From Armatimonadota bacterium (GTDB lineage: Bacteria; Armatimonadota; UBA5829), in NCBI GenBank assembly GCA_052035525.1, contig JBPOHN010000012.1, positions 208,784 through 272,783 on the forward strand: a DNA stretch of 64,000 bases, in the 5' to 3' direction. Below, in pieces: positions 2,692 to 33,248 of the stretch. The stretch's first letter is position 1. Each line of letters begins with the position of its first letter. The translations under genes were made by a program, and so were the position numbers. The notes below the pieces were generated by a model. The model did not search any database and had not been told where the DNA came from. It saw only the letters and a list, made by a program, of their open reading frames with translations.

Positions 2692-2704
2692 TAGACTGCC
2701 TCGA

Positions 2705-4666: not shown

Positions 4667-4702
4667 AAGCGCAGCGGCTCAGATAGCACGGGAGACTGGG
4701 TG

Positions 4703-5698
4703 TCATAGAGCGGGAGCAGTCTCGGCCGCCCTCTCGCAATACTCCCTCAACAGCCGTATGTAAAGGCGGTAGTCTTCTAACGAGCATCCGGGCGGCGTTT
4801 GGTGGTCGCAGGACGGAATGAAGCCACCCTGCTTCATTACGGGCAGCAGGCGCTCGAATTCCTCGCGCATGCGCTCCTCGCCCAAGTGCATGACGGTCTT
4901 GTCGAAGGCGCCCAACAGCTTGATGCGAGGATGACGGCGGCGAAGCTCGGACACATCAACTCCGGCCATCCGCTCAAGTGGCAGAAGCCCCTCACAGCCT
5001 ACTTCAAGAAACCACGCGGCAGGCTCCGTGATGTCCCCGTCCGTATCAACGAGGATGGTACTCCCGCGACTCTTCAGAACAGGTGTGATTCGGCGGTAGA
5101 ACGGCGCCATGAACTCGTCGAACTGAGCTTTCGATAGCATTGGGCCGTGATTGTAGGACATGTCCTCGGCGAAGGTGACGAAATCCGGCACGCAGATCTC
5201 GCAGAACTCGTCGTAGATGCGGAGGTTGAACGCGAGCAAGTCTTCGTTCATCTCCTTCATCAAGTCCGGTTGATCGTAGAACGCGTAGAGGTGTTCCTCG
5301 ATGCCGAACAGCGTGCGGGGATACCAGAACGGTCCCTCCAGCGTTATCCAGACGATCATCTCACCGGTCGCATGTCGCTCAGCCCAGCCGCGCACCATGT
5401 CCTTGTCGAACGCGTTCTCCGGGTAGAGCGTCGGCTTCAGGGCGAGGTACTGCTCCCGATTGGCGACTTTGCTTCGACCTGCAGGGCCGATCCAGTACTG
5501 CCGGTGACAATCCTGGCCGAAGTAGTCGCGGATATCTCCCGCATCTGTCAGTTCCGCAGGAAGCCCTTCCGTGTGCCAGCGGGCGATGGTCTTGTCCCAC
5601 CAGACTGCCCATTCGAGCACCGGCAGCCGATCCACTGGTTGGAAGTTGAACACACGCTGAAGCCGTTGTCTGTTGGTCACGCCGTCTGCCCCTTCCAC
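4703..5698 (-). CDS. Uroporphyrinogen decarboxylase (URO-D)/MtaA-CmuA-like methyltransferase family protein
   Basis: 331 aa; the ...FIPSCDHQTPPGCSLEDY... tail and overall length fit the URO-D-like TIM-barrel family. Confidence 0.7.
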   Translation of the reverse strand: MEGADGVTNRQRLQRVFNFQPVDRLPVLEWAVWWDKTIARWHTEGLPAELTDAGDIRDYFGQDCHRQYWIGPAGRSKVANREQYLALKPTLYPENAFDKDMVRGWAERHATGEMIVWITLEGPFWYPRTLFGIEEHLYAFYDQPDLMKEMNEDLLAFNLRIYDEFCEICVPDFVTFAEDMSYNHGPMLSKAQFDEFMAPFYRRITPVLKSRGSTILVDTDGDITEPAAWFLEVGCEGLLPLERMAGVDVSELRRRHPRIKLLGAFDKTVMHLGEERMREEFERLLPVMKQGGFIPSCDHQTPPGCSLEDYRLYIRLLREYCERAAETAPAL

Positions 5699-7509
5699 TC
5701 AGCGTACAACCTCTCGAAATCGGCCACCAGACCTTCCACGACCTTGATTCCGCCGCGCCAGAACTCGGGGTCGCGGATGTCGATGCCCACCCGCCCGAGC
5801 AACTCCTCGGGCGAACACGCGCCGCCGGTCCTCAGAAGCTCGATGTACTTCGGCACGAACGACTCGCCCTCGCGCAGATACATCGAGTAGAGCGCCATCA
5901 CGAGCAGTTCGCCGAACGAATAGGCATACACGTAGAACGGCGATTCGACGAAGTGGTTTACATACATCCACCAGTACGCATGCTCCTCGCCCATTTCCAC
6001 GGAGTCTTTGAACATGGCCTGGATGTTGCGCTGCCACATCTCGCCGATTTGCTCGGTCGTAAGCTCGCCCTGCTCCCGCCTGCCCCGATGCAGTTCCTGC
6101 TCGAAACGATACATGGCCGCCTGGCGGAACACTGTTGCAAATATACCGTCTATCTTCTCAGCGTAGAGGGCAAGTTTCTCTTCCAGGTTGGAATTGGCCA
6201 CCAGGCTCTGGAAGACGAGCATTTCCCCGAAGGTGCTGGCAAGCTCGGCTACTGGCAGCACGCTGCCGAAGTTGAACAGCGTCTGGCGCCGGGCGAGGGA
6301 ATAGTGGACCCCATGACCGAGTTCATGCGCGAGCGTCATGATGTCCTCCTTGCGGTTCAGGTAGCTCATCAGCACGTAGGGGTGCAGGTCCGGTGTAACC
6401 GAGATGCAGAACGCCCCGCCGCGTTTGGCCTTGCGCGGTTCCGCATCGATCCAGTTGTTATCGAAAAACTCCCGCGCGGCGTCGGCCATTTCGGTCGAGA
6501 ACCGTCCGAACGAATCCAGGACGATCTCTTTGCCCTGCTCGAACGAATATTCCTCGCGTGACTCGAACAGCGGAGCGTAGCGATCGTAGTGATAGAGCTT
6601 GTCATAGCCCAGCGCCTCGCGCTTCACCCGATAGTAGCGTGCCACGAGGTCATAGCCTTCCACGCACTTGTCCATTACGTTCTCGACCGTCTGCCTGTCC
6701 AACTCGTTCGAGATATTACGTGCTTGCTCCGGATACTCGCAGCGGCGCAGGCGATCATCTATGGATTTGTCATAGACGAGGGTGTTGAAGATGAAAGTCA
6801 GCAGCCGGCTGTTGGCAACAAGGCCCTGAGTCAAGGACTCAGCCGCCGCCTTGCGCACCTCCCGGCGTGGATCCCGCAGCAGAGCGAGGACTTCCGGCTC
6901 GCTGAGTGTCTGCTCCACTCCGTCGAGCGTGATCTTGAACTCGATCGTTGAGACGGACTCCTCAAACAGGCGCTCAAAAGCTCGCCCTCCGGTGTTAGCT
7001 TTCTCCTCCAGGATTCGCTCCTCGCCTTCGGGCAGTTTGTGGTCGCGAAACAGGCGCGAAGCATGGATGAAGTGCTTGTAGTTGACGAGGATAGGGTCTT
7101 CAAGCAGCCTATCGATGATCTCCGGCTTGGCGGCCATCAGTTCCAGCTCAAAGAAGATCAACTGAAGAGAGATCTCTGTCTGCCGTTCCTGCACGTGCTG
7201 CATCAGGGCGCCGTGCTCGGGCTTGCTCGTATCTGCAGAGAAGACCTGTACCGCGTAGCTGCTTACCTTCGACTGCACGGTGGCCATGTCCTCGAGTTCC
7301 TCGATTGCCTCCAGCAGCGTCTCTGCGGTCAGATCGTCGCTATTGATCCTCCCCCGGTAGCGTTCCGCGAACGCTTTGGCACGAGCCAGAGTAGCGTCAA
7401 GAGCCTTATCTATCGCGGGGTCGTCCACTCCGCTGAACAACTCGCTGAGGTCCCACGCGACCTTTGTTGTGTCGGGCATATCGATCTCCTTCACTTGAGA
7501 TAAGGGCAA
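5677..7509 (-). CDS. pepF: Oligoendopeptidase F (M3B metallopeptidase)
   Basis: HELGHGVH zinc motif and ~600 aa length typical of PepF. The true start may be MPDTT at 7479. Confidence 0.9.
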   Translation of the reverse strand: MPLSQVKEIDMPDTTKVAWDLSELFSGVDDPAIDKALDATLARAKAFAERYRGRINSDDLTAETLLEAIEELEDMATVQSKVSSYAVQVFSADTSKPEHGALMQHVQERQTEISLQLIFFELELMAAKPEIIDRLLEDPILVNYKHFIHASRLFRDHKLPEGEERILEEKANTGGRAFERLFEESVSTIEFKITLDGVEQTLSEPEVLALLRDPRREVRKAAAESLTQGLVANSRLLTFIFNTLVYDKSIDDRLRRCEYPEQARNISNELDRQTVENVMDKCVEGYDLVARYYRVKREALGYDKLYHYDRYAPLFESREEYSFEQGKEIVLDSFGRFSTEMADAAREFFDNNWIDAEPRKAKRGGAFCISVTPDLHPYVLMSYLNRKEDIMTLAHELGHGVHYSLARRQTLFNFGSVLPVAELASTFGEMLVFQSLVANSNLEEKLALYAEKIDGIFATVFRQAAMYRFEQELHRGRREQGELTTEQIGEMWQRNIQAMFKDSVEMGEEHAYWWMYVNHFVESPFYVYAYSFGELLVMALYSMYLREGESFVPKYIELLRTGGACSPEELLGRVGIDIRDPEFWRGGIKVVEGLVADFERLYAEWKGQTA

Positions 7510-9967: not shown

Positions 9968-10543
9968 ATGAGCCAGATAAGAGTAGTAATCGCAGACGAC
10001 GAATCGATCATTCGGCTTGACCTGAAAACGCTCCTCGAGGAGATGGGGCATGTGGTCATCGGCGAGGCCGCGGACGGTCAGCGGGCGCTGGAGTTGGCCC
10101 GCAGCCTGAAGCCGGATGTTGTCATAATGGATATCAAGATGCCGATTATGGACGGGCTCGACGCGGCGAAGGTCATATCAGAGGAGAAGATCGCCCCCGT
10201 CGTGCTGCTCACGGCCTACAGCCAAAAGGACCTGATAGAGCGCGCCAAAGAGGCCGGGGTCTACGCCTACCTTGTGAAGCCCTTCCAGGAATCCGCCCTG
10301 ATGCCTGCCATCGAGCTTGCGCTGTCGCGCTATCTCGAGCAGCAGGATCTCGAAAAGACGCTCGGCAGCCTCGAAGAGAAGCTGGAAACCCGGAAGCTCG
10401 TGGATCGCGCCAAAGGCATCCTGATGGACAAGTACCAGATGAATGAGGCCGATGCGTTCAGAAGAATCCAGCAGCAGAGCATGAACCAGCGCCGCACGAT
10501 GAAGGAAATCGCCGAGGCGATCATCATCGCGCACGAGATATAG
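9968..10543 (+). CDS. ANTAR-domain response regulator (REC + ANTAR; PdtaR/AmiR/NasT-like)
   Basis: VVIADDESIIRLDL...DVVIMDIKMP (REC, with Asp pocket), and C-terminal ...LVDRAKGILMDKYQMNEADAFRRIQQQSMNQRRTMKEIAEAII (ANTAR). Confidence 0.9.
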   Translation: MSQIRVVIADDESIIRLDLKTLLEEMGHVVIGEAADGQRALELARSLKPDVVIMDIKMPIMDGLDAAKVISEEKIAPVVLLTAYSQKDLIERAKEAGVYAYLVKPFQESALMPAIELALSRYLEQQDLEKTLGSLEEKLETRKLVDRAKGILMDKYQMNEADAFRRIQQQSMNQRRTMKEIAEAIIIAHEI

Positions 10544-10683: not shown

Positions 10684-12231
10684 ATGCTCCACATCGACGA
10701 GATGCTCAAGAAGGTGGCCGACATTGTTGCCCAGGTCACCGGCACAGACCTCTGCTTGATCTACCTCCTCAATGACGCAGCCAACGAACTGGTGCTCAGA
10801 GCCGCGAGCGGCGACACCAAGGACGTCGTCGGCAAGGTTCGACTGAAGGTCGGCGAGGGCGTCACCGGCTGGGTCGCGCAGCAGCGCATGCCCGCCATCA
10901 TAAACAAGGAGGCGCCTCGCGACAAGCGCTTCAAGATGGTCCCCGGCTTCAAGGAGGACAACTATCAGTCCATGCTGTCCGTGCCGCTGAGGGGCCGCCA
11001 TGATCTTATTGGGGTCATCACCGTCCGCACAAAGCCGGCGCACGAGTATACTGAGACGCAGGTCAGCCTCCTGGACAGCATAGCCCGGCAGGTAGGCGGC
11101 GCCGTCGAGAACCACAACCAGTATCGCCGGATGGAGCAGCGCGCGTCGCAGCTCAGCACCCTCTCTGAAGTCAGCCGCACGATCACCTCCGACCTGTATC
11201 TCGAAGAGATCCTCCAGCTCATCGTGGCTATGACCGCCGAGAGCATGAACTTCAGGATTTGCTCGATTATGCTCCTCGACGACAAGAAGCAGGAGCTTGT
11301 GATCAAGGCCACGCAATCGAAGAGCCGCGCGTATGTCAAGAAGCCTAACCTCAAGCTTTCCGAAAGCGTAGCGGGCCGCGCGGTAACCGAGGGCAAGCCT
11401 ATCACGATATTAGATGTGCGCAAGACGGCGGGTTACCAGTATCCGGACATCGCCAAGCAGGAGGGCTTGTGCTCGCTGATCGCGCTGCCTCTCGCGGTGA
11501 AGAAGGAGATAATCGGCGTCCTCAACTGCTATACGGCGAAACCCAGGCACTTCACCGAGGAAGACATCAACCTCTTGACGGCGCTTGCGAATCAGGCCGC
11601 GCTATCGATCCAGAATGCGAAGCTGATGGTGCAGACTGCCGTCCTGCAGGAGATGCACCACAGGGTGAAAAACAGCCTGCAGACCATCGCCAGCCTGCTG
11701 AGGCTGCAGCTTAGGGTTGGAAAGTTCGATTCGCCGCGCGAGGCTCTCACCCAGAGTATAAACCGCATTCAAAGCATCGCGGCCGTTCACGAGATGCTGT
11801 CCAGCGAGAACCTCGACGATGTCAACCTCCGCAAACTCGCGGAGAACATTCTCTCGGCAACCGCAAGAGGTCTGCTGCCGGACACGAGGGAGGTCAGGAC
11901 CGCCGTCGAGGGCGACGATTTCCTGCTTCCAAGCGGCCAGGCGACCTACGTGGCGCTGATCCTGAACGAGCTTATCCAGAACGCGGTCGAGCACGGGCTC
12001 AAGGGCGATATGGGGACGGAACTGCTTGTGGAAGTCTCGCAGAACGAGGATTCGGTGAGGATCGCGGTCACAAACGACGGCGAACCGCTTCCCGACGACT
12101 TCGACCTCAAAGGCAACCGCAATCTGGGCCTCAAGATCGTCGAAAGCCTCGTCCGGGACAACCTGATGGGCGAGTTCCTCATCTCATCGGCTAACGGCCG
12201 CACTTGCTCCGTAGTGCGGTTTCCGAGGTAG
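10684..12231 (+). CDS. Sensor histidine kinase with two GAF domains, a HisKA_2-type H-box and HATPase (PdtaS-like)
   Basis: Two GAF-like blocks (...VGEGVTGWVAQQRMP...; ...VAGRAVTEGKPITILDV...), H-box EMHHRVKNSLQTIASLL, and N-box/G-box ILNELIQNAVEHG...GLGL. No ATG/GTG/TTG upstream in frame, so the start at 10684 stands or is a non-canonical codon. Confidence 0.85.
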   Translation: MLHIDEMLKKVADIVAQVTGTDLCLIYLLNDAANELVLRAASGDTKDVVGKVRLKVGEGVTGWVAQQRMPAIINKEAPRDKRFKMVPGFKEDNYQSMLSVPLRGRHDLIGVITVRTKPAHEYTETQVSLLDSIARQVGGAVENHNQYRRMEQRASQLSTLSEVSRTITSDLYLEEILQLIVAMTAESMNFRICSIMLLDDKKQELVIKATQSKSRAYVKKPNLKLSESVAGRAVTEGKPITILDVRKTAGYQYPDIAKQEGLCSLIALPLAVKKEIIGVLNCYTAKPRHFTEEDINLLTALANQAALSIQNAKLMVQTAVLQEMHHRVKNSLQTIASLLRLQLRVGKFDSPREALTQSINRIQSIAAVHEMLSSENLDDVNLRKLAENILSATARGLLPDTREVRTAVEGDDFLLPSGQATYVALILNELIQNAVEHGLKGDMGTELLVEVSQNEDSVRIAVTNDGEPLPDDFDLKGNRNLGLKIVESLVRDNLMGEFLISSANGRTCSVVRFPR

Positions 12232-13362: not shown

Positions 13363-13490
13363 ATCTCGGCTGTAGAATGAGATCGGTCAGTAGCGCGTTG
13401 CGTCGGTTGCGAGACTTGCGCGGCGAGCTCACTTAACCTCTCTTTTCTGCATTGGGGATGGCTGCAATCCGGCCATCCCGTTTTCTTCTG
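13363..13490 (+). promoter_or_regulatory. Leader of the C1 operon: candidate promoter (-10 TAGAAT 13363-13368), riboswitch-like aptamer (13381-13440) and intrinsic terminator (13455-13490)
   Basis: A plus-strand terminator GGGATGGC-tgcaatcc-GCCATCCC + GTTTTCTTCTG lies immediately upstream of an RBS (GGAGG 13517-13521) and the GTG start at 13530, with no upstream plus-strand gene. This is the classic attenuator layout. The leader contains ...CAGUAGCGCGUUGCG...GCGCGGCGA..., reminiscent of THF-riboswitch conserved blocks. Confidence 0.3.
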
Positions 13491-13529: not shown

Positions 13530-14354
13530 GTGCTAATCGTTGGCGAGAGAATCAACACCAGCAGGAAGGTAAAGGGCGAACCAGTTATTGAGGCCGCCGT
13601 TGTCGGGCGAAATGCCGAGTTCATCGCCGACCTCGCGAAGAAGCAGTTCGAGGCCGGAGCGACCTACATAGATATCAACGCCGGGACCCTTACTTCCGGC
13701 GAACCGGAAGCGCTGGAGTGGCTTACGCAAGTCGTGCAGTCTGCGGTGGACGCGCCGATAGCGTTCGACACCCCCAATCCCGCTGCCCTGGAGAAGGCAT
13801 TGGCAGCATACGATACCGCCAAGGGCCAGCCGATGATCAACTCGATCACCGCTGAGTCCGAGCGCTACGCCAATATCCTCCCGTTCGTGCTGAAATACAA
13901 GGCCAAGGTGATCGCGCTTGCGATGGACGATACGGGAATCCAGCAGGACCCCACGAAGAGGCTCGCCGTAGCTCGGAAGTTGATTGCCGACCTCACCGCC
14001 GCGGGAGTTGCGCTGGACGATATCTACATCGACCCGCTCACATTCCCGATCGGCACGGGCAGCGATGTTGCAGTCGCTATGCTCGACATAATCGAGAAGC
14101 TCGCCGCCGAGTTCCCGGGCGTTCACATCATAGCCGGGCTGAGCAATATCTCGCATGGCATGCCCGCGCGGAAGCTCCTAAACCAGGCGATGACGGTGCT
14201 GGCTCTCGGTAAGGGTCTGGATGCGGGGATCATCGACCCGAACGACAGATACCTGATGGCACTCATCTACGCGACCGAGGCGCTGCTCGGCCGCGATGAG
14301 TTCTGTATGAACTACATAAGCAAATCCCGCGAGGGAGCATTCGAAGGGATCTAG
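13530..14354 (+). CDS. Pterin-binding (DHPS-like TIM barrel) methyltetrahydrofolate:corrinoid methyltransferase family protein (AcsE/MtrH-like)
   Basis: VLIVGERINTSRK...ATYIDINAGT...DTPNPAALEKAL...MINSIT is the typical MeTr/pterin-binding domain layout. GTG start with a good RBS. Confidence 0.8.
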   Translation: MLIVGERINTSRKVKGEPVIEAAVVGRNAEFIADLAKKQFEAGATYIDINAGTLTSGEPEALEWLTQVVQSAVDAPIAFDTPNPAALEKALAAYDTAKGQPMINSITAESERYANILPFVLKYKAKVIALAMDDTGIQQDPTKRLAVARKLIADLTAAGVALDDIYIDPLTFPIGTGSDVAVAMLDIIEKLAAEFPGVHIIAGLSNISHGMPARKLLNQAMTVLALGKGLDAGIIDPNDRYLMALIYATEALLGRDEFCMNYISKSREGAFEGI

Positions 14355-14358
14355 GAAC

Positions 14359-14436
14359 TACGAATTACGAATGACGAGTCACGAATCGCAGAGGATTTCC
14401 CCTTCAGTCGTGACGCGCAATTCGTAACTCGTCATT
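14359..14436. repeat. Array of ACGAAT-type heptamer repeats (4 direct + 2 inverted) in the metF upstream region
   Basis: TACGAAT TACGAAT GACGAGT CACGAAT (14359-14386), then ~32 nt, then AATTCGTAACTCGTCATT (14419-14436; the reverse complement gives GACGAGT TACGAAT). The same word pair recurs at 29003-29020. Confidence 0.45.
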
Positions 14437-14438
14437 GG

Positions 14439-15449
14439 GTGACTCTAATGATTTCCGGTAGCAATCTTGAGCTCTTGTTGGAGCAGGGGGAGTTCGTGGT
14501 CTGTGGGGAGATGAGTCCTCCGCAGGGCGCGGACAAGGCATCGATCCTCAAAAAGTGCAGTTACTTCAAGGACGTGGTCGATGCGGTTAACCTGACTGAT
14601 AACCAGACCGCCATCGTAAGGATGAGTTCGGTCATGTCCAGCGTGTTCGCGCTGGAGGGCGGCGTCGAGCCGATCATCCAGATGACCTGCCGCGACCGCA
14701 ACCGCCTCGCGCAGCAGTCGGATATTCTCGGAGCGTATGCGGCCGGCGTCAAGAACATCCTCTGTCTCACGGGCGACTATATGAGCTTCGGCAACCACCC
14801 TCAGGCAAAGGGTGTTTTCGACCTCGATTCCGTCCAGCTCATTCATACTGTCGCCGATATGAATGCCGGCAAGTTCCTCTCGGGTGATGAGATGAAGTCG
14901 CCGCCAAAGATGTTCATCGGCGGCGCGGCAAACCCGTTCGCCGAGCCATTCGACCTGCGGATCGTCCGTCTGGGCAAGAAGATCGCTGCAGGAGCGCATT
15001 TCATCCAGACCCAACCCGTTTTCGACTTCCCCCGCTTCGAACGGTGGATCAAAGCGGTGCGCGATGAGGGTTACGATCAGCAGGTGCACATCCTGGCCGG
15101 CGTCATGCCGGTGCGGTCTGTGAAGGCGCTGCTCTACATGAAGGAGAGCGTGCCGGGGATGAGCGTGGCGGACGAGTACATCCAGCGGATGTCTGACGTA
15201 GCGGATTCCAAGGAAGCAAGCGCGGAGATGGGCGTGCAGATCTGCGTGGAGACGATCAAGCGGCTCCGGGAAATACCTGGTGTCCACGGAGTTCACATAA
15301 TGCCTGTTATGTGGGAATCCATCACTCCGAGACTCGTAGAAGCCGCCGGCCTTCTCCCTCGCCCGAAGCCTGTCGAGCCCCAGCCGGAAGCGAGTCCTTC
15401 CGAGGGAACCGGGGAATCTGCTGTGTCTGCCCCAGGAGCGCAATCATGA
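14439..15449 (+). CDS. metF: 5,10-methylenetetrahydrofolate reductase
   Basis: MetF-family TIM barrel with MISGSN... N-terminus. The probable true start is ATG 14448. Stop overlaps the metV ATG (ATGA). Confidence 0.85.
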   Translation: MTLMISGSNLELLLEQGEFVVCGEMSPPQGADKASILKKCSYFKDVVDAVNLTDNQTAIVRMSSVMSSVFALEGGVEPIIQMTCRDRNRLAQQSDILGAYAAGVKNILCLTGDYMSFGNHPQAKGVFDLDSVQLIHTVADMNAGKFLSGDEMKSPPKMFIGGAANPFAEPFDLRIVRLGKKIAAGAHFIQTQPVFDFPRFERWIKAVRDEGYDQQVHILAGVMPVRSVKALLYMKESVPGMSVADEYIQRMSDVADSKEASAEMGVQICVETIKRLREIPGVHGVHIMPVMWESITPRLVEAAGLLPRPKPVEPQPEASPSEGTGESAVSAPGAQS

Positions 15450-15889
15450 GCAAGTTATCTGAGAAAATCGCGGATTTCTGCGAGAAGCATCCAACGCTGT
15501 ATAAGTGCGTGCTCCTTGGGGAGAACGCGTTCAAGAAGCCCGTGTTCAGGTGCCAGGACTGCGGCCAGTGCGTGCTGAGCTATAACGCCTACACCTGCTG
15601 CATGCGCTGCCCCAAGCAAATCCGTAACGGCCCCTGCGGTGGGACGAGACCCGATGGGCACTGCGAAGTCTATCCCGAGCGTAACTGCATCTGGTGGCTG
15701 ATCTATGAGCGCGCGAAGAAGATCGGCAGGCAGGAAAAGCTCCGCAAGTATCACATACCGGTGGATCGTCGGCTTGAGCACACCAGCGCGTGGATGAATA
15801 TGTTCGCCGGGAGAATCCTGCCGTTGGATCTCGGCAAGGAACTCAAAGAAGTGAAACTGACGCGCGACGACGCGCCGCCGGTCAAGTAG
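15446..15889 (+). CDS. metV: Methylene-THF reductase C-terminal domain protein (MetV-like zinc-ribbon partner of MetF)
   Basis: MSKLSEKIADFCEKHPTLYKCVLLG...CQDCGQCVLSY...CCMRCPKQIRNGPCGG is a Cys-rich MTHFR_C-type domain. Translationally coupled to metF. Confidence 0.7.
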   Translation: MSKLSEKIADFCEKHPTLYKCVLLGENAFKKPVFRCQDCGQCVLSYNAYTCCMRCPKQIRNGPCGGTRPDGHCEVYPERNCIWWLIYERAKKIGRQEKLRKYHIPVDRRLEHTSAWMNMFAGRILPLDLGKELKEVKLTRDDAPPVK

Positions 15890-15908
15890 TAAGATCTGGA
15901 GAATCACG

Positions 15909-17576
15909 ATGCTATCAGACGTTGAAATCGCGCAGAAAGCAAAAGCCAGGCATATACGAGATGTTGCCGCCGAGCTCGGGCTCGGCGAGGACGACCTGAG
16001 GCTGTACGGGCACGACAAGGCAAAGGTCACCTTCGAGGCGATCGAGAAGCGGCAGTCCAACCCGGACGGAAAGCTGATCCTCGTCACCGCCATCACGCCC
16101 ACCCCTGCGGGTGAGGGAAAGACCACCACCACGGTCGGCTTGGGCGACGCGATGCGCAAGCTCGGCATGAAGACCTGCATCGCAATCCGCGAGCCCTCTC
16201 TCGGCCCCTGCTTCGGCGTCAAGGGCGGCGCCGCCGGCGGCGGCTACGCGCAGGTCATCCCGATGGCGGACATCAACCTGCACTTTACCGGCGACTTCCA
16301 CGCCATTACGACCGCGCACAACCTGCTCGCCGCGATGCTCGATAACTCCCTGCACCAGGGCAATCCTCTCGATATCGAGCCCCATTCCATTACGTGGAAG
16401 CGCGTGATGGATATGAACGAGCGCGCGCTACGCGATATCATCATCGGTCTCGGCGGCAAGACCAACGGAATGCCCCGGCAGTCCGGGTTCGATATCACCA
16501 CTGCATCAGAGATCATGGCGCTGCTCTGTCTTGCGTCGGACCGGGAGGACCTGGAGGCTCGGCTGTCCCGCGTGCTGGTCGGCCTCACCAAGTCAGGCGC
16601 GCCGGTCACCGCGAAGGACCTGCAGGCCAGCGGAGCTATGGCCGTGGTCCTCAAAGATGCAATATTCCCGAACATAGTGCAGACTCTCGAGGGTACTCCG
16701 GCGTTCGTACACGGTGGGCCGTTCGGCAACATCGCGCACGGATGCAACTCGATCATCGCCACCAGGGCCGCGCTGAAGCTCGCGGATTATGTGATCACTG
16801 AAGCTGGATTCGGCAGCGACCTGGGCGCCGAGAAGTTCTTCAACATCAAGTGCCGCGTCGGCAATCTCAAGCCGGTTACGGCGGTTGTTGTTGCCACCAT
16901 TCGTGCGCTCAAGATGCACGGCGGCGTGCCCATCAGTGAGCTTACACAGAGCAACCCTGGGGCTGTCGTTAAGGGAATCGCCAACCTCGAGAAGCATTGC
17001 GAGAACGTGCGAGCGGTCAACCTCGAGCCGATTGTAGCTATCAACAAGTTCCCCACGGACTCCGAGGAAGAGATCGCGGCATTGTCAGACGAGTGCCGCA
17101 GGATGGGCGTCACATGGGCGCTTTCCGATGTTTGGGCTGCGGGCGGCGAGGGTGGGCAGGCCCTCGCCGAGCTGGTAGTCAAAGCCGCCGAGGGCGAATC
17201 TACATTCGCGCCTGCCTATCCGCTCGACGTGCCGATAAAGCAGAAGGTCGAGACGATTGCCCAGAAGTTCTATGGCGCGGACGGAGCGGATTTCACCCCG
17301 GCTGCATCGAAGCAAATCGCCGAGATCGAGAAGCTCGGTTTTGCCGGACTTCCGGTCTGCATAGCGAAAACGCAGAACTCACTCTCCGACGATGCCAAAG
17401 CCATCGGCCGTCCGAGAGGCTACAAGATCAACATCCGTGGAGCAAAGGTCAGCGCGGGCGCCGGCTTCGTAGTGATCTACGCAGGCGATATTATGACCAT
17501 GCCCGGCCTGCCGAAAGTGCCCGCGGCCACCAAGATCGGCATGAACTCGAACGGCGAGATCCACGGATTGTTCTAA
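15909..17576 (+). CDS. fhs: Formate--tetrahydrofolate ligase
   Basis: PTPAGEGKTTTTVGL P-loop, 555 aa, FTHFS family throughout. Confidence 0.95.
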   Translation: MLSDVEIAQKAKARHIRDVAAELGLGEDDLRLYGHDKAKVTFEAIEKRQSNPDGKLILVTAITPTPAGEGKTTTTVGLGDAMRKLGMKTCIAIREPSLGPCFGVKGGAAGGGYAQVIPMADINLHFTGDFHAITTAHNLLAAMLDNSLHQGNPLDIEPHSITWKRVMDMNERALRDIIIGLGGKTNGMPRQSGFDITTASEIMALLCLASDREDLEARLSRVLVGLTKSGAPVTAKDLQASGAMAVVLKDAIFPNIVQTLEGTPAFVHGGPFGNIAHGCNSIIATRAALKLADYVITEAGFGSDLGAEKFFNIKCRVGNLKPVTAVVVATIRALKMHGGVPISELTQSNPGAVVKGIANLEKHCENVRAVNLEPIVAINKFPTDSEEEIAALSDECRRMGVTWALSDVWAAGGEGGQALAELVVKAAEGESTFAPAYPLDVPIKQKVETIAQKFYGADGADFTPAASKQIAEIEKLGFAGLPVCIAKTQNSLSDDAKAIGRPRGYKINIRGAKVSAGAGFVVIYAGDIMTMPGLPKVPAATKIGMNSNGEIHGLF

Positions 17577-17686
17577 GACAAGTGCGTCATCTGGGTGGAG
17601 GGACCATGAAGAGTCTGCTCTAAGGCTGAGTTCCTTTCTCAGAAGCGGACTCCTCGCTCCGCTCAGATTGACAGAAGGAGGCTAAA

Positions 17687-18325
17687 ATGCCCGTAGTGCA
17701 CGTAGGCGACAAAATGCCAGATTGGTGCGAGCTTGAGAACTTCCAGCTCATCCAGGTACCCAAGAACAACTCGATATCGCTTCCGCGAATGGGCGCAAAG
17801 GAAGAGATAGTGGTCTGCCAGGGCAGCGTCCGTGTAGACTCCGCGGCGGGGACTCCGAAACTGGCCACAGGCGAGAAGCTGGACTTGAACACCGCCGATG
17901 AGCCGGGCTACCGTTTCACCGCCCTCGACGGTGACGCACTCGTGTTTCACGCGGCGGGCCGGTGGGAATCCATCACCAGCTCCGGCATATTCCCCGTCTT
18001 TCACAGCGACACACTCGCTGCGATGCAGACCCCGCACGAATACGAAAAGACAACGTCCTTCGACAATCACTACCACGACTGCGACGAATACTGGATCTTC
18101 TTCCAGGGCCGGTGCAAGGCGGTGAGCGAAGGCAAGTTCTATGAAGTCGGGCCGGGCGACTGCGTCATCACAGGCATGGGATGGCACCACGACGTGGCCT
18201 CGCTCATCGACTCCGAAGCCGCCCTGGCGGTATGGTTCGAGGGCACCCTTGAGCGCGAAAAACGCGTGGGCCACCTGTGGGAACCCGTGCATGGCAAAGC
18301 CGTACCGTGCCTGGACAGAGTGTAG
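17687..18325 (+). CDS. Cupin-domain protein
   Basis: Two His-containing cupin-like blocks (HYHDCDEYWIFFQG; GMGWHHD). Preferred over the 518-aa antisense ORF. Confidence 0.65.
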   Translation: MPVVHVGDKMPDWCELENFQLIQVPKNNSISLPRMGAKEEIVVCQGSVRVDSAAGTPKLATGEKLDLNTADEPGYRFTALDGDALVFHAAGRWESITSSGIFPVFHSDTLAAMQTPHEYEKTTSFDNHYHDCDEYWIFFQGRCKAVSEGKFYEVGPGDCVITGMGWHHDVASLIDSEAALAVWFEGTLEREKRVGHLWEPVHGKAVPCLDRV

Positions 18326-18337
18326 AGGAGCAATAGG

Positions 18338-19303
18338 ATGGCAACTGAACTGAAGAAACGTCGGCTGGGCCGCACGAATCTGATGGTCACCGAGGTCAGT
18401 CTCGGCGGCTATATGTTCACCGGCGAGTTCAACATACCGCGATCTGAGGCGGATGCGATCATGGACTGCGCGTTCAACGCTGGTGTTAACTACATCGATA
18501 CCGCTCAGATGTATGGCTTCGGCGAGGGCGAGGAGCTTGCGGGCCGCGCGCTCCGCAGGCATGCAAATAAGCAGATCCATATCAGCACGAAGGTCGGTTA
18601 CATGGACCGCACCATCGTTCGTAACCTGGGGGATGCTGCCTACAACGACGAAGCGGCGCTGCGCCGGACGATACTTCACAGCCTCTGGCTGCTGCAGTTG
18701 GACTACGTAGACATCATGTATGTGCACGAGCCTAACATGGAAGGCTGGTGGGGCGACGGGCTGCACACAGGCAAAGCCCCGGTCCTCCATGTGCTGCAGG
18801 AGCTCAAGAGCGAGGGCGTAATCGGCGCCATCGGCCTCGGCGGATGGGTCTGCGACAATATCGCCGATCTTCTCGATACGGGCCGGTTCGATGTCGCGCT
18901 CTGTGCCGGCGGCTACACCCTCGTGAAGCAGCCCGTGCGCGAACGGGTAATCGACATCGCGAAGAAGCATGATGTGGGCCTCGTGATGGGCGGCACGTTC
19001 CTGCAGGGGTTCCTGGCCACCATCCAGCGCGAGCATATGCAGAACCTGCTCAAGACAAAGGAGTACGGATTCTGGGATGAGGCCACGGTCCGGCGGATTC
19101 TGAAGATCTACGACCTCTGCGAGGAAACCGGCATCAGCCTCACCGATATGACGCTGCGCTATATCCTCGCTGATCCGAATATTCACGCGATCATCCCGGG
19201 CGCGCGGGAAGTGTGCCACGTGGAACAGAATATTCAGGCGGCGCTCGCCGGCCCACTGCCGGAGGAACTGGTCAAGCGGATCGACGAGATCTCCCAGTCA
19301 TAG
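18338..19303 (+). CDS. Aldo/keto reductase
   Basis: LGRTNLMVTEVSLGG...IDTAQMYG...GEELAG is the AKR N-terminal signature. Confidence 0.9.
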   Translation: MATELKKRRLGRTNLMVTEVSLGGYMFTGEFNIPRSEADAIMDCAFNAGVNYIDTAQMYGFGEGEELAGRALRRHANKQIHISTKVGYMDRTIVRNLGDAAYNDEAALRRTILHSLWLLQLDYVDIMYVHEPNMEGWWGDGLHTGKAPVLHVLQELKSEGVIGAIGLGGWVCDNIADLLDTGRFDVALCAGGYTLVKQPVRERVIDIAKKHDVGLVMGGTFLQGFLATIQREHMQNLLKTKEYGFWDEATVRRILKIYDLCEETGISLTDMTLRYILADPNIHAIIPGAREVCHVEQNIQAALAGPLPEELVKRIDEISQS

Positions 19304-23318: not shown

Positions 23319-26300
23319 CTAACTGACTTTGACTTCCACCGTCGCGCTCGTCGCATTGCCTGCGGCATCTATCGCCTGGACCTCGACTTTGTGCTCCCCA
23401 AGCGATAGGCTCGGCGTCGTGATCGTGAAGTCCTCGCTGGGCGAGTCGAATATGCCGTTGTCAGGCTCCGCGGCAGCCCAGTCGCCGCCGTCCACCCGAT
23501 ACTGCACGCCGGTTATCTCCACGGACTTGCTCGTCGCAGTTCCGGTGATTGTCGCCGCGGCGGCAGCCTTCATCTGGATTGTCCGCCTGCCAAGCTTAAG
23601 CTCAGGAGCCTTGTTGCAGATCGTGAACGGCTCGGAGATGACCTCGTCCGTCAGCGAGCCAGTTGCATTGCTCGATTTGTCACTTGCCACAACCTTGATC
23701 AGGTAGGTCCCGTCCTCAACCGAGGCCGTGTTCCAGTTGTATGACGTGCTAGTCGAAGGCCCGCCAGCAGGCTTCGGAGGCGTCGGCATTGTCCCGGCCT
23801 TGCCTGCGGCGCCTATCGCCGTTGTGATCGGCTTCTTCACGTCCTCCGGCACGTCACCAGCCTTCGCCAACTCGGATGACAGCTTTGCCATTATCTCGCT
23901 TGCCGGTTTGCGCTCCGTTGTGGCCGCCCCACTGGTCATTCCGCCGACAAGAGCAGTCCAGTCCTTGCCTCCGTTCTTCGAGTAGAACACGTCGTAGGTT
24001 AGGGTGTCCTTGTCCGGATCGGAGCCCGTCCAGCGAATGGTCTGCTTGCCGGACCACGTCTCGCCTCCGCTGGGCGAAGTGAGCTTCACCACCGGCGCCT
24101 GGTTTGGCGTGAGGTAGGAAATCGCTACCAGCGATACCCTCGGGGTCACGTTTGGCTTGGACGTGGTCAACACCACCTGATACTGGATATACCTGCCCGG
24201 CTTGTTCGGAATCTGCTGGCCGGCGCTATTCGTATAAGGGGCCGACCAATCGGTCCACGTGGAATCCGGATTCTCGACGTTTCCCGTACGTGTGCGGATC
24301 TCGACAGCAGTTCCCTCGGGAGTATCGGCGATCCACTTGATCCGACCCCACTTCGACGGCATCTTGGCATCGTGGACGGCGGACTCGAAGCTGCCCCTGA
24401 TGTCGCAGCACTTGCTCAGATATACCGACCCCACGTTGCCTGTGCTCGCGTAAAGCTCGTCCTCTGTGTCGTTCAAGGCCAGTGAGAGGAATTGCAGCTT
24501 CTCCTGCGATGAATCGAGCTGCACCACGGTGTCATCTGGCGCTATCTTCACTAGCGTCGAATCCGATACGGCATACACGTTGTTGCGCGAGTCGCACACC
24601 ATCGACATCACCCGGTTGGCCTTAGGATAGACCACCTTCGATCTGCCCTCCGCGTCGACCTTGTAGATCGCGCTCTTGGTGCCGACGAAGGCGTTTCCAT
24701 CGCCATCACTCACAACCGATATGGCGGCATCCTCCGGCGCGTCGAAAATCGGTGTCGCTCTGCCGCTCTTGTCGGCGCGGTAGACGACGCCACCGATCCC
24801 GGTTCCAATCAGAAGCGAGCCGTGAGGGTCCCAGCCCAGGCTGAGTACCTGCTGCTCGTTCACTGAGGTGAACACGGTCGCCACGCCCGCCGGGCTGATC
24901 TTGTAGACCTTGCCTCCGTCACCAACGCCGGCATAGAGATTCCCCTGCGGATCCACGGTCAGGGCGAGTACATATTTCTCGTCCGCCTTGTATAGCAGCT
25001 TGCCCTTGCCGTCCGGCGTGATCTTGAATATCTTGCCGAACGGCGACGTCCCGGCGTACACGTTGCCGGCAGCGTCCCTGACCACGGAGTGCACTTCCAG
25101 TTCTCCGGTCTCATAGAACACGCTCGATTCCCCGGAGTTCGTGATCTTGTAGATCTTGCCGGCGTTTCCTGTTCCGGCGTAGACGCCATCCTTAGTTGCG
25201 CACACGCTCCACACGTATTGCTCCGGGGTATCCGATAGCTTTTTCAGTGTTGGAGCAAGCTCCAGCTTGTTCTGACTGGAAGCAGACACTCCCATGAACC
25301 TGCCCTTGGCAAAGTCAGCCTGCGTCTTTTGGATCCATGTGGTCGCCTGCCGCACCACAGTCTTCACGTTCGACTTCGGCCCCGGCGCAGGCTCCGGTTT
25401 CTTATCTTCTGAATCGGGCTCGGCGTCAGAGGAGCTATCAGCCGTTTTCAGATCCTCCGATTCCGCGGAGTCCTTCTCCACGGACATCGGCTCTTCCTGA
25501 ACGGGCTCGTCCTTGACGGCGGCCGGTGTTGCGGCCAGATCATCCGGCCCGGAGCCTGACCGGGTAGACATGAACTCGATGTCCGAGTAGTCGCTCGTGT
25601 CCAGACTCGTCGTGTCGCTCGAACTCGACGATGACGACGAGCTGCTGCTGTCCATGGAGTCCAGCGAAGTGCTCAGCCTGAGCGGGCCCTTCGACTCACG
25701 CAGGGATTTCCTCTTCACGTCCAGTGTCAGCCGGGCCGTGCCCGATACGATCGCGTCGCTGGGGAAGACGGCCTTCACTTCCTCCCGCTCCATCCTCAAG
25801 CCTGAGTTGCGTGAGGACCGCATTATGTCGGATATGACCGTTGGCATGCCCGCCAGCTTCTCGCCTGCCACGTTTATGGCGGTGTTCCGCATCAGGAGTT
25901 GCAGCACGATCTCGTTGTTCCTCTCGCGCTCCAGGAACTTGGAGACCAACTGCTGCACGTTATCTGCGTTAGCCATGCCCGAGTCCCCGCCCAGTACTCC
26001 TCCGCCTGGCATTATGTCCGCTTCGGAGGAATCGCTGCTCGCGTCCGAGGAGGGCGCGGCCATTATCTGCAGCCCTGCAGGCGTCGCGCCGCCCCGAACA
26101 ACAAGGCTGATCTTGCCATCGGCGGCAGTCGCGGGGATCTTGATCTGGAACATCTTCGTGACGCGCGGCTGCTTATATGGCCGCAGAACCACGCCCACGT
26201 CCACTATCTCACCCGGCTCGAACTCACTCTTCTTCACGAAGATCCTGTCGATCGTGGCGGTCTCCCGCTTCGCAAGGATCTTCACCTTCACGTTGACTGA

Positions 26301-27692
26301 GTGAATGTCCAGCGGCTCGAACTTGTTCGAGCTGAGCAGGCTCAAGAGGCGCGCAACGTCCATTGTCGCCGGCATATCGATAGAGGCTGTATCAAAAAAC
26401 ACGTTGCTTCGCGATATCTTGCCGATCCGGTCCGCCACTACATCATAGCTGACCATCGCGGTCGCATCGCCGGGCGTCGTATGGATCGTGGCTATCGCCT
26501 CGCTGGTAACCATCGCAATAAGCCTGGCGGCCAGCAGCGGATGGTTGATGACCTTGACGCGGAACACCCGGTCACGCTTGGCGGACTGATCGTCCACCGC
26601 GATCGTCACGGGAATCGTCTTCGTGGTAGCTCCCAGAGCGCCCGCGATCGACCACGGCCGGTCCTGGAAAATCCGGCCCACCGTCTCTATTGCCGTACCG
26701 ACCTTGATCGAGGTCTGGAAATTCGACATGCAGTCAACAATGAAAGCGGTAGTCATCGGCGCGTCAATGGAGCCGATCCCGAGCATCGGATGGCCGAACG
26801 CCAGAATTCTGTTTCCGCGCCGATAGGTGACCGTACCGATCCCCGTCATGTCGAGGTCGCCGGAGGCAAGCGACATGCCGACCGCGGAACCCGGCTTCAA
26901 GTCCACCTTCAACTTGGATTTCGGGTCCGATCCGCCAGGTCCGGCTATGGGCCTGATGTTATAGGGCTTCAGTATCTCGGCCAGCCGCTCGATCCCGCGC
27001 CGCGAGATACCGCTGCACATAAGCGGGGTCATCAAGGGCTGCATGTACATAACGTCGCCCTCGACACTTCGATTGCTGCCGGTTGTGTCGATCTGCACCT
27101 TCCGCACGGTCTTACCGTCTATGCTCAGCGGTTCCGGAAGCGATTGGGCGCTGGAATAGCCGCTGGGGTGCTTCGGGAGGTTGCTGTCCCACGCCTCCAG
27201 CATATCCGCTATAGGTGTCACCATTCCCACGGGCTCCTTGGCGAACGGCATTCCGTAGGCGATGGCGCCAATGAGCTTGTCCTTTATGTAGACCGGGCTT
27301 CCGCTCATGCCGCTCATAATACCGGTCTGCCGCTTGTTGATCGGCCCGCCGCCGACCCGGACCATGATCAGGTCCCTGCCGGTGTTCGTGCGCTTCATCA
27401 CTCCAAGGATCTCGACGTCGAACTTCTCGATCGTCGTCCCGTGGAACACGGTCAGCCCGTAGCCTCTCATGCCTCTCTTGACCTCGGAAACCGGCATGAT
27501 CTTCTTCGCGTCCTCAGCCGCGAGAGTCGGCCAATACGCAGCCAGAGCCGCCGGCACCAGAGCGCCAAAGACGAAAGCCAGTGTCACGACGAACAGGGTG
27601 AGTCTGCGGTAACTACTCAAGCTAATTCCTCCAGGACATGAAAAGCGGGGCAGCAGTAGCTGTGCCGCCCCGCACAGATAAGATAGTAGCAC
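23319..27692 (-). CDS. Giant secreted/anchored multidomain protein: S55 (SpoIVB)-like serine peptidase motifs, acidic Ser-rich linker, 7-blade beta-propeller and C-terminal Ig-like domains
   Basis: N-terminal signal/anchor; GMSGSPVYI (Ser motif), GIGTVTYRRGNRILAFGHPM (S55 His motif); SSSSSSSSSSDTTSLDTSDYSD low-complexity stretch; seven ~40-aa blades (YAGTGNAGKIYKI, YAGTSPFGKIFKI, YAGVGDGGKVYKI...); C-terminal Ig-like repeats. Confidence 0.8.
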   Translation of the reverse strand: MLLSYLCGAAQLLLPRFSCPGGISLSSYRRLTLFVVTLAFVFGALVPAALAAYWPTLAAEDAKKIMPVSEVKRGMRGYGLTVFHGTTIEKFDVEILGVMKRTNTGRDLIMVRVGGGPINKRQTGIMSGMSGSPVYIKDKLIGAIAYGMPFAKEPVGMVTPIADMLEAWDSNLPKHPSGYSSAQSLPEPLSIDGKTVRKVQIDTTGSNRSVEGDVMYMQPLMTPLMCSGISRRGIERLAEILKPYNIRPIAGPGGSDPKSKLKVDLKPGSAVGMSLASGDLDMTGIGTVTYRRGNRILAFGHPMLGIGSIDAPMTTAFIVDCMSNFQTSIKVGTAIETVGRIFQDRPWSIAGALGATTKTIPVTIAVDDQSAKRDRVFRVKVINHPLLAARLIAMVTSEAIATIHTTPGDATAMVSYDVVADRIGKISRSNVFFDTASIDMPATMDVARLLSLLSSNKFEPLDIHSVNVKVKILAKRETATIDRIFVKKSEFEPGEIVDVGVVLRPYKQPRVTKMFQIKIPATAADGKISLVVRGGATPAGLQIMAAPSSDASSDSSEADIMPGGGVLGGDSGMANADNVQQLVSKFLERERNNEIVLQLLMRNTAINVAGEKLAGMPTVISDIMRSSRNSGLRMEREEVKAVFPSDAIVSGTARLTLDVKRKSLRESKGPLRLSTSLDSMDSSSSSSSSSSSDTTSLDTSDYSDIEFMSTRSGSGPDDLAATPAAVKDEPVQEEPMSVEKDSAESEDLKTADSSSDAEPDSEDKKPEPAPGPKSNVKTVVRQATTWIQKTQADFAKGRFMGVSASSQNKLELAPTLKKLSDTPEQYVWSVCATKDGVYAGTGNAGKIYKITNSGESSVFYETGELEVHSVVRDAAGNVYAGTSPFGKIFKITPDGKGKLLYKADEKYVLALTVDPQGNLYAGVGDGGKVYKISPAGVATVFTSVNEQQVLSLGWDPHGSLLIGTGIGGVVYRADKSGRATPIFDAPEDAAISVVSDGDGNAFVGTKSAIYKVDAEGRSKVVYPKANRVMSMVCDSRNNVYAVSDSTLVKIAPDDTVVQLDSSQEKLQFLSLALNDTEDELYASTGNVGSVYLSKCCDIRGSFESAVHDAKMPSKWGRIKWIADTPEGTAVEIRTRTGNVENPDSTWTDWSAPYTNSAGQQIPNKPGRYIQYQVVLTTSKPNVTPRVSLVAISYLTPNQAPVVKLTSPSGGETWSGKQTIRWTGSDPDKDTLTYDVFYSKNGGKDWTALVGGMTSGAATTERKPASEIMAKLSSELAKAGDVPEDVKKPITTAIGAAGKAGTMPTPPKPAGGPSTSTSYNWNTASVEDGTYLIKVVASDKSSNATGSLTDEVISEPFTICNKAPELKLGRRTIQMKAAAAATITGTATSKSVEITGVQYRVDGGDWAAAEPDNGIFDSPSEDFTITTPSLSLGEHKVEVQAIDAAGNATSATVEVKVS

Positions 27693-32572: not shown

Positions 32573-33115
32573 ATGGCAAACCGATACAAGGTCATCCAGG
32601 GAGGTCCCTATCCGCACCTGATCACTTGCACGATTGTCAGGTGGCTCCCCGTGTTCATCTCGGGCCCGTACTTCCGCGTGCTCACCGACAGCCTCCGGCA
32701 CTTGCGGGAAAACCGAGGCCTGATGATCCATGCGTATGTGATAATGCCCACCCACCTGCACGCCATAGTCACCGCGACCGAGGACGACCTGTCAGATATC
32801 GTGCGCGACTTCAAGAAGTTCACGTCCAGAGCGATCTACGAGCTTGCCGAGCAGTCAGGCAACGTCCTGCTTACGTGGATGTTCGAGCAGGCGGCAAAGA
32901 AGCAGCCTCACAGCCGCTTCAAGGTCTGGCAGGACGAGTTCCACCCCAAGGCTCTGTCCGGTGAGGAGATGATGAGGCAGAAGGCGGAGTATGTGCACGC
33001 GAATCCGGTTCGCAAAGAGCTGGTTATGGAGCCGGAGAAGTGGTATTACTCGAGCGCATCATTCTACGCGGGGAAAGCGACCGGGCCCGTGCCAATCGAC
33101 GTGCCTGAGTGGTAG
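32573..33115 (+). mobile_element. REP-associated tyrosine transposase (RAYT; IS200/IS605 TnpA-like Y1 HUH transposase)
   Basis: HUH motif IMPTHLHAIV and catalytic Tyr region EKWYYSSASFY. 180 aa; flanked on both sides by REP palindromes. Confidence 0.8.
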
Positions 33116-33120
33116 CTGTG

Positions 33121-33172
33121 CCGGATTCGGAAATCCGGCTGGAGCAGTGGGGTGGCGATTCGGAAACCGCGG
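33121..33172. repeat. REP-like elements, copy 4 (CCGGATTCGGAAATCCGG at 33121-33138, plus degenerate GGGGTGGCGATTCGGAAACCGCGG at 33149-33172)
   Basis: Immediately downstream of the RAYT gene. Confidence 0.5.
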
Positions 33173-33248
33173 TTCTGACGAGAAGGCAAGATAGGATTGG
33201 GTGACGAAGCAGAGGCTAGTCTAGCCGGTCTATTCGCTCGCCAATTAG

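Follow-up and report, generated by a model that had tools for sequence, protein, structure and literature searches.

A clade-wide pterin methyltransferase-metF-metV-fhs cassette in Armatimonadota, a candidate folate arm of a modular corrinoid methyl-transfer hub

A four-gene one-carbon cassette and its leader

We analyzed a stretch of 64,000 nucleotides from an Armatimonadota bacterium (assembly GCA_052035525.1, contig JBPOHN010000012.1, positions 208,784 to 272,783 of the forward strand), referred to here in its entirety as the window, in which a pterin-binding methyltransferase gene (its product is called PTE below) is followed by metF, metV and fhs. The window has a G+C content of ~60%, and together with 8 kb beyond its left end, which were reached via ftcD, it provided ~72 kb of readable genome sequence. 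The cassette and its leader contain the following features, with coordinates counted from the first nucleotide of the window.

13455-13489, plus strand: terminator-like hairpin in the 5' leader of PTE, a stem of ten pairs (seven of them G-C) with GTTTTCTTCT after it, 40 nt upstream of the start codon
13530-14354, plus strand: PTE, 274 aa, single domain; Pfam Pterin_bind (PF00809), 78.8 bits; NF005719
14448-15449, plus strand: MetF, catalytic subunit of a type II MetVF methylene-tetrahydrofolate (methylene-THF) reductase; PF02219, 130.5 bits
15446-15889, plus strand: MetV, Cys-rich Fe-S/zinc partner of MetF, 147 aa with nine Cys; PF12225, 88.8 bits
15909-17576, plus strand: Fhs, formate-THF ligase; NF010030, 867 bits (cutoff 652); PF01268, 860.6 bits

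All four genes are co-directional and are separated by gaps of 93, -4 and 19 nt, with the start of metV overlapping the stop of metF by 4 nt. The metF start at 14448 was taken from the gene call on identical contigs; the open reading frame (ORF) is open from a GTG at 14439, and 14439 and 14478 are alternative starts. The best NCBIfam match of MetF was to the MTHFR half of PRK08645 (242 bits). The combination of a PF02219 MetF with an adjoining Cys-rich PF12225 MetV, and without RnfC2 or Hdr/Mvh genes nearby, identifies the pair as type II in the scheme for MetVF enzymes of PMC8760232. The family scores, coordinates and common orientation bore out an initial annotation of this DNA, which had described the four genes as one operon, and their conservation across a clade of relatives (below) supports the prediction that they are co-transcribed. 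The same annotation had called the locus a methyl-branch-like C1 module without carbon monoxide dehydrogenase/acetyl-CoA synthase (CODH/ACS) and had seen no corrinoid protein. This description held: a Pfam scan of all plausible ORFs of the window revealed no B12-binding, CODH/ACS, RACo or homocysteine-methyltransferase domain, and tblastn searches of the window with the corrinoid protein, DUF1638 protein, RACo and homocysteine methyltransferase of relatives found none of them. The 8 kb beyond the left end contained no relevant genes. Two edge proteins were sought as a means of extending the window; for the one at 384-929 the sole record was a contig of 1.3 kb, and for the one at 62680-63954 there was no record.

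PTE was then compared with family models and solved structures. It scored 310.9 bits against NF005719, the model of the MeTr family (cutoff 259), with residues 1-271 aligned to model positions 1-263 of 268. It fell below the AcsE model NF040758 (145.5 bits, cutoff 370) and below the full-length MetH model TIGR02082 (109 bits, cutoff 1010), of which only positions 344-595, the pterin segment, were matched; a weak CdhD-family match was also observed. Among solved structures the highest score was to 4O0Q (187 bits), followed by MeTr of Carboxydothermus hydrogenoformans (154 bits), MeTr of Moorella (135 bits) and the MetH modules (75-89 bits). PTE is 38% identical to 4O0Q over 259 columns (full length) and 34% identical to 2YCI, and in residue-level alignments its motifs FDTPNP, MINS, IDPL and GLSNIS matched both, accounting for all four barrel motifs FD(T/S)xNP, MINS, IDPL and GLSN(I/V)S. 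We take 4O0Q to be the MT-II (THF-binding methyltransferase) of the Desulfitobacterium hafniense O-demethylase; its depositors named it 'dihydropteroate synthase DHPS'. That name, and the occurrence of distant homologues among folate genes, raised dihydropteroate synthase as a candidate for PTE, which was ruled out by the NF005719 score and the MeTr alignments. Since PTE passed NF005719 and failed the AcsE and MetH models, and given the ranking of the structures, its sequence assigns it to the stand-alone MeTr/MT-II family, as a predicted methyl-THF:corrinoid-protein methyltransferase with an MtgD-like TIM barrel, and not to AcsE or to the pterin domains fused in MetH.

The PTE leader is a 368-nt divergent intergenic region. 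The hairpin at 13455-13489 is a possible attenuator, or part of a leader controlled by antitermination, and similar hairpins precede the PTE ribosome-binding site in two relatives (L011 and L041; loci of relatives carry L numbers throughout). An ANTAR response regulator (9968-10543) and a GAF/HisKA_2 kinase (10684-12231) are encoded 1.3 kb upstream; the paired hexaloop hairpins expected for ANTAR were not found in the leader by eye or with RNAfold. The leader matched no Rfam family, with only chance-level matches. Nine relatives (L013, L018, L019, L020, L021, L024, L025, L029 and L033) encode, upstream of the cassette and in its orientation, an AraC-family regulator that contains a PocR sensory domain. 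In L020 (4672-4861) and L029 (4392-4583) there is a 6S RNA gene ahead of the regulator.

Conservation of the cassette and location of candidate partners

The conservation of the cassette was analyzed in 80 loci encoding PTE relatives, found by scanning one genome per species, with ORFs chosen by a total-bit-score rule. Relatives of PTE at 66-87% identity all came from Armatimonadota metagenome-assembled genomes (MAGs) or from MAGs within the same clade, and an identical protein is on record in GCA_964391295.1 and several Logan assemblies. The next-closest relatives were from Abditibacteriota (57%), Clostridia (54%), Syntrophaceticus (50%), Caldatribacterium (46%) and Brocadiaceae (~40%). Within the clade, PTE was adjoined by metF in 30 of 34 species and by metV in 28 of 34, and fhs lay at most 4 kb away in 25 of 34. 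Four loci had the inverted order fhs-(folD)-metF-metV-PTE, two of them with folD between fhs and metF. Linkage nearly vanished outside the Armatimonadota clade, and in L018, L067 and L037 PTE was found beside fhs without metFV. Because the genes are kept together across the clade, the cassette is better regarded as a conserved functional unit than as a chance neighborhood. Its flanks varied by species (aroA-aroC, GH32, DUF1559 proteins and others), and such variable housekeeping and carbohydrate-related surroundings would fit a self-contained biosynthetic unit.

A neighbor-joining bootstrap phylogeny of PTE, of the kind proposed in the initial annotation, recovered the Armatimonadota clade in 100/100 replicates and in 94/100 when Abditibacteriota was added. 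Beyond this solid clade the tree was star-like, with a Syntrophaceticus plus Dehalococcoidia sequence (29/100) and a split-MetH pair (24/100) as sister candidates, so that the tree left the sister group unsettled and did not assign a function. More distant relatives, at 37-47% identity (L047, L054-L065, L069, L073 and L080-L086, from Caldatribacterium, Planctomycetota and Omnitrophota), sit among folC, 6-pyruvoyl-tetrahydropterin synthase, pabB, pabC, panB, panE and a HUMPS-RraA fusion. Their flanks contain no corrinoid genes, an unexplained association for a family named for corrinoid methyl transfer.

In two relatives the cassette is fused to a large URO-D/corrinoid protein cluster. These are L041 (Armatimonadota SJ283), in which PTE is 74% identical, and L112 (a JGI metagenome contig), in which the cassette proteins are 76-79% identical (PTE identity across the two is 74-77%); in both, a DUF1638/corrinoid protein/URO-D cluster directly precedes PTE-metF-metV-fhs on the same strand. 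The order in L112 is flavin reductase, URO-D, DUF1638, a 211-aa corrinoid protein (B12-binding_2 plus B12-binding), URO-D and cassette, with gaps of 0, 15, 132, 135, 2, -4 and -4 nt from the fourth URO-D gene through the cassette. Additional URO-D genes are found further upstream, along with genes for a nitroreductase and for an aldo-keto reductase that carries an Fe-S domain. The set in L041 is similar, with a folC fragment directly upstream of PTE, and the number of URO-D proteins is three in L041 and five in L112. An MT-I and a corrinoid protein encoded together with the MT-II, which are absent from the window, were seen only in these two loci.

The corrinoid protein belongs to a family with thousands of homologues. 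The best 120 are 65-88% identical, all 120 contain DxHxxG, and many are named Armatimonadota by their source records. In three species the corrinoid protein is encoded in the block priA-def-fmt-TPR-RACo-corrinoid protein-EamA, and one of the three has metK upstream of it. The surroundings are of a housekeeping kind, and the neighboring RACo is a reductive activator of the RamA/RACo type. RACo also adjoins PTE in L042, L048 and L050. Downstream of a PTE homologue (45-49% identical to PTE of the window), both L048 (Ca. Thermosaccharophagus) and L050 (Armatimonadota SKYB128) encode RACo and then a PF02574 homocysteine S-methyltransferase, in which GxNC and GGCC motifs occur. JANXAS01, the MAG that contains L050, encodes on another contig a member of the corrinoid protein family described above (P0082), and stand-alone homocysteine modules were also found in other Armatimonadota MAGs. 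Of the parts of a split methionine synthase, the stand-alone pterin module is thus present in the window as the single-domain, 274-aa PTE, and the others (corrinoid protein, PF02574 protein and RACo) are all present in relatives.

A methyl branch had already been noted in Armatimonadota MAGs (PMC11535203), and it is established that split methionine synthases and demethylases can rely on pterin methyltransferases of the stand-alone kind (PMC5764234, PMC12478193). The addition made here is a PTE-metF-metV-fhs cassette kept clade-wide in Armatimonadota, with probable partners scattered over other loci.

Possible roles of the cassette

The reading that best accounts for these data is that the cassette forms the folate arm of a modular corrinoid methyl-transfer hub, whose main use in this organism is methionine synthesis; we assign it a probability of roughly 55%. 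By analogy, the hub would be of the type represented by Ruegeria MtgD and the split MetH of Phaeobacter, and could also serve methyl-group catabolism. In such a hub, Fhs, a FolD encoded elsewhere and a ferredoxin-type MetFV would interconvert formate and 5-methyl-THF. PTE would exchange the methyl group with the Co(I) center of a small (~211 aa), MtaC-like corrinoid protein with a DxHxxG motif, encoded at another locus with a RACo/RamA-type reductive activator. From the corrinoid protein the methyl group would then pass to homocysteine through a stand-alone homocysteine S-methyltransferase module, yielding methionine, the whole acting as a split methionine synthase. As the PTE step would be reversible, the hub could also accept methyl groups from URO-D-type methyltransferases, and L041 and L112 appear to have wired it to such enzymes. 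That this genome carries the corrinoid protein, RACo and homocysteine module we infer from its relatives, and we likewise infer that PTE works with that corrinoid protein and the net direction of flux.

Methionine synthesis is favored because the cassette is kept in ~30 mostly saccharolytic species with unrelated flanks, because housekeeping genes surround the corrinoid protein and RACo, and because one Armatimonadota MAG shows a complete split-MetH set. Split-MetH parts of PTE's family in Armatimonadota provide the simplest explanation for the presence of the cassette in ~30 saccharolytic species. The initial annotation had allowed that PTE might group with the pterin domain of MetH and a split metH be found, which would make this ordinary methionine metabolism. 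The first half did not occur, PTE scoring 75-89 bits against MetH-fused pterin domains versus 135-187 bits against stand-alone MeTr/MT-II proteins, whereas split-MetH parts that use PTE's stand-alone family are indeed present in Armatimonadota.

Several points weigh against a hub devoted mainly to methionine. The corrinoid protein, RACo and homocysteine module were not found in the ~72 kb of readable sequence from this organism, and each corrinoid candidate whose source profile resembled that of this species proved to derive from a different sample or species. A full-length MetH or MetE, if encoded in the genome, would make a split MetH redundant. The placement of the clade beside split-MetH PTEs lacked bootstrap support (24/100). 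The several URO-D proteins of L041 (three) and L112 (five) exceed the need of methionine synthesis alone. No SAM, cobalamin, THF or ZTP riboswitch was detected ahead of the cassette in the window and seven relatives at Rfam gathering thresholds, and the AraC/PocR regulators upstream look more like substrate induction than amino-acid control.

The closest comparison is with the alphaproteobacterial systems. The three-part MetH of Phaeobacter inhibens needs PF00809, corrinoid and PF02574 proteins, together with a RamA-like activator with a ferredoxin domain and a DUF1638 protein encoded beside the corrinoid protein (PMC5764234). MtgD of Ruegeria pomeroyi is a bidirectional pterin methyltransferase with the metF paralogue metF2 immediately downstream, and is genetically required for methionine synthesis and, in reverse, for glycine betaine demethylation (PMC12478193). 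Judged by protein families, the combined parts list of the Armatimonadota relatives equals that of the Phaeobacter three-part methionine synthase. As in Ruegeria (SPO1863) and Phaeobacter (PGA1_c16040), a stand-alone PF00809 methyltransferase is followed immediately by metF; in those systems the corrinoid protein, homocysteine module, RamA/RACo and DUF1638 are encoded at other loci and the hub is shared by methionine synthesis and demethylation. Unlike those systems, the present unit has an anaerobe-type MetF plus MetV and includes fhs, its hosts are Armatimonadota rather than aerobic Alphaproteobacteria, and its partners were seen in relatives. The likeness is one of families and gene layout, not of sequence comparison with the Ruegeria or Phaeobacter proteins.

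MetF and MetV resemble the type II MetVF enzymes of Clostridium ljungdahlii and others, which likewise combine MetF with a Cys-rich MetV without RnfC2 or Hdr/Mvh genes (PMC8760232, PMC8515935). Purified type II enzymes use reduced ferredoxin in vitro (PMC8760232). Unlike the C. ljungdahlii type, the order here is metF then metV and the host is not an acetogen; use of ferredoxin by the Armatimonadota enzyme is presumed by analogy.

The main alternative to a methionine-dedicated hub is a catabolic one, in which URO-D methyltransferases transfer the methyl groups of methoxylated or other methylated substrates to the corrinoid protein and PTE moves them on to THF, after which MetFV, FolD and Fhs oxidize methyl-THF to formate with the gain of one ATP at Fhs. 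This reading is possible but unlikely. It draws on L041 and L112, in which three or five URO-D proteins, DUF1638, the corrinoid protein, a flavin reductase and a nitroreductase are encoded directly upstream of the cassette; on the best solved relative, 4O0Q, presumably an O-demethylase MT-II; and on the AraC/PocR regulators and the absence of the four riboswitches noted above. In addition, Ruegeria MetF2, encoded beside mtgD, runs oxidatively (PMC12478193). Against it, L041 is the only one of the 34 species loci with a linked URO-D/corrinoid cluster, and L112, from outside that set, is the sole other example. The URO-D proteins of the window are unlinked to the cassette and divergent, with orthologues that are not beside corrinoid proteins, and in three species the corrinoid protein and RACo belong to the def-fmt housekeeping locus. 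Oxidation of methyl-THF by a MetVF-type enzyme is also energetically hard without a coupling partner (PMC8760232), and none adjoins the cassette. The O-demethylase operon of D. hafniense, described in PMC3727330, offers a further comparison: its MT-II, presumably 4O0Q, shares the one-domain architecture of PTE and gave the best structural score. Unlike PTE, it is encoded in one operon with the corrinoid protein and a substrate methyltransferase, whereas PTE is encoded with metF, metV and fhs and these partners are absent from the 64 kb of the window. The initial annotation had suggested corrinoid-dependent methyl transfer feeding methyl-THF; this theme is real in the clade through the L041 and L112 clusters, but not through the URO-D proteins of the window.

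The two readings are not exclusive, as the Ruegeria system illustrates. A more speculative and doubtful extension is that some Armatimonadota run a non-acetogenic, corrinoid-dependent methyl catabolism, in which an expanded set of divergent URO-D-fold methyltransferases feeds one small corrinoid protein, and PTE, MetFV, FolD and Fhs oxidize the methyl group to formate and yield ATP. The methyl source would be methoxy compounds derived from plants or polysaccharides, and DUF1638 with a flavin reductase/nitroreductase pair would keep the corrinoid protein active, instead of or besides RACo. The cassette of the window, its two URO-D genes and the nitroreductase linked to one of them would then be scattered parts of such a system. 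The L041 and L112 clusters provide a concrete list of candidate parts for possible methyl harvesting in a poorly cultured, polysaccharide-degrading phylum.

It is highly improbable that PTE is a true AcsE, with the cassette as the methyl branch of a complete or decaying Wood-Ljungdahl pathway and a corrinoid iron-sulfur protein (CFeSP) and CODH/ACS encoded elsewhere. The gene content does equal an acetogen methyl branch, acetogens likewise clustering their methyltransferase with metVF, folD and fhs. MAGs of Thermosaccharophagaceae (Armatimonadota) have been reported with the core methyl branch (PMC11535203), PTE has its weak CdhD-family match, and it shares fold and reaction chemistry with AcsE/MeTr of Moorella (2E7F) and Carboxydothermus (2YCI). 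Against this reading, PTE scored 145.5 bits where the AcsE cutoff is 370 and is only 34% identical to 2YCI; no CODH/ACS (acsB/cooS) or CFeSP (acsC/acsD) genes were found in the window, in the 8 kb beyond or in the annotated flanks of relatives; and what L041 and L112 encode as the linked corrinoid partner is of the MtaC type, 211 aa long, rather than CFeSP. Finding fhs and metFV with an 'acsE-like' gene in a MAG need not mean a partial Wood-Ljungdahl pathway: in the present case the protein concerned scores below the AcsE cutoff, and the partners linked to it belong to a split methionine synthase or methyl hub. Tools that expect one MetH or MetE gene may misjudge the methionine prototrophy and B12 dependence of Armatimonadota.

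It is scarcely credible that PTE works without a corrinoid, whether as an accessory subunit that binds methyl-folate for MetFV or in the metabolism or salvage of folate: the 37-47% identical homologues among folC, PTPS, pabB, pabC and panB/panE genes, the folC fragment of L041 and the three loci with PTE beside fhs alone would suit such a role, but PTE matches the MeTr model over its full length, its catalytic-region motifs align with solved MeTr/MT-II, a corrinoid protein (L041, L112) or RACo (L042, L048, L050) adjoins it in relatives, and we know of no precedent for a corrinoid-independent member of the MeTr family.

URO-D-like genes and other features of the window

Three further genes of the window provide context for the cassette.

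1792-2691, minus strand: FtcD, glutamate formimidoyltransferase, a further enzyme of folate metabolism; TIGR02024, 314 bits; in the operon of URO-D1
4703-5698, minus strand: URO-D1, URO-D-fold protein; Pfam, 47.8 bits
52587-53636, plus strand: URO-D2, remote URO-D-superfamily protein; Pfam, 17.9 bits (threshold 23.9)

The initial annotation had placed ftcD at 1792, as the TIGR02024 score confirmed, and had assigned the other two proteins to the URO-D/MtaA family, taking them as a hint of corrinoid-dependent methyl transfer. The URO-D part of that label stood for URO-D1, whose AlphaFold model (pLDDT 93) gave Foldseek TM scores of 0.65-0.72 at 12-18% identity to both UROD and Methanosarcina mazei MtaA, so that on its model it is a true URO-D-fold protein, and stood remotely for URO-D2. 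The MtaA part did not, since both proteins fell below the MtaA/CmuA models TIGR01463 and NF004889 (19.8 and 16 bits for URO-D1, 25 and 18.1 bits for URO-D2; cutoffs 244 and 235). For the His-x-Cys...Cys zinc site of MtaA we assume the ligand positions of the Methanosarcina barkeri and M. mazei enzymes. The URO-D1 family has no conserved Cys at these positions, and its invariant residues are D218, D220 and D298-H299-Q300. The URO-D2 family retains H279-x-C281 with no conserved Cys downstream.

URO-D1 is encoded in a tight minus-strand operon (1792-7509) with an M3 oligopeptidase, a DUF6785/DUF6784 membrane protein and ftcD. It is only ~30% identical to the URO-D whose gene, in L041 and L112, lies between those for PTE and the corrinoid protein, and URO-D1 orthologues (60-89% identical) occur in Armatimonadota, Omnitrophota and Brocadiia. 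In two readable orthologue contexts the neighbors were a sodium:solute symporter with folB/HPPK nearby, or a second URO-D; neither contained a corrinoid protein. By sequence, URO-D1 represents a well-conserved URO-D-fold family of unassigned function. The URO-D2 family comprises 925 cluster representatives at E <= 0.001, and its sole tie to the superfamily is a profile-profile match to the URO-D1 family (94.7% probability, E = 5.9e-8, 115 columns). A single-sequence AlphaFold model of URO-D2 was unusable (pLDDT 38.8), and phmmer searches of PDB sequences with URO-D1, URO-D2 and the L112 protein U5 gave no meaningful match. The suggestion that the two proteins point to corrinoid methyl transfer did not survive the separate operon, the ~30% identity, the orthologues beside transporters and the missing Cys ligands, and on present evidence neither URO-D1 nor URO-D2 can be tied to the cassette.

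The gene after URO-D2 (53747-54310, plus strand) encodes a nitroreductase of the TM1586 type. The same nitroreductase cluster was observed directly 3' of PTE in five Omnitrophota loci (L080, L082, L084, L085 and L086), and beside the flavin reductase within the URO-D/corrinoid clusters of L041 (3970-4461) and L112 (6951-7442). The L112 protein gave a sub-threshold BluB-like match (82.6 bits, cutoff 150). The nitroreductase may act in the reduction of corrinoids or in the chemistry of their lower ligand.

Downstream of fhs, the plus strand encodes a cupin-like protein (17687-18325) and an aldo-keto reductase (18338-19303), with no terminator-like site between fhs and these genes; neither is conserved beside the cassette in other species. 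A 518-aa ORF on the minus strand after fhs (17663-19219) was rejected as an antisense shadow of the two genes.

Two other regions were noted. The segment from 32573 to 36343 groups genes for a Y1 transposase of the IS200-like type, a PRTase-CE protein, a ParB_N protein and a D12 N6-adenine DNA methyltransferase, and its G+C falls to 0.573-0.577; this may be a small mobile or defense islet. The minus strand at 23319-27692 contains a 1457-aa ORF, for which precomputed Pfam annotation on identical contigs gives Peptidase_S55 (SpoIVB family) with faint Reg_prop and Big_7 matches, and which adjoins genes for an ArsR-type regulator and a hydrolase, both with DUF3887.

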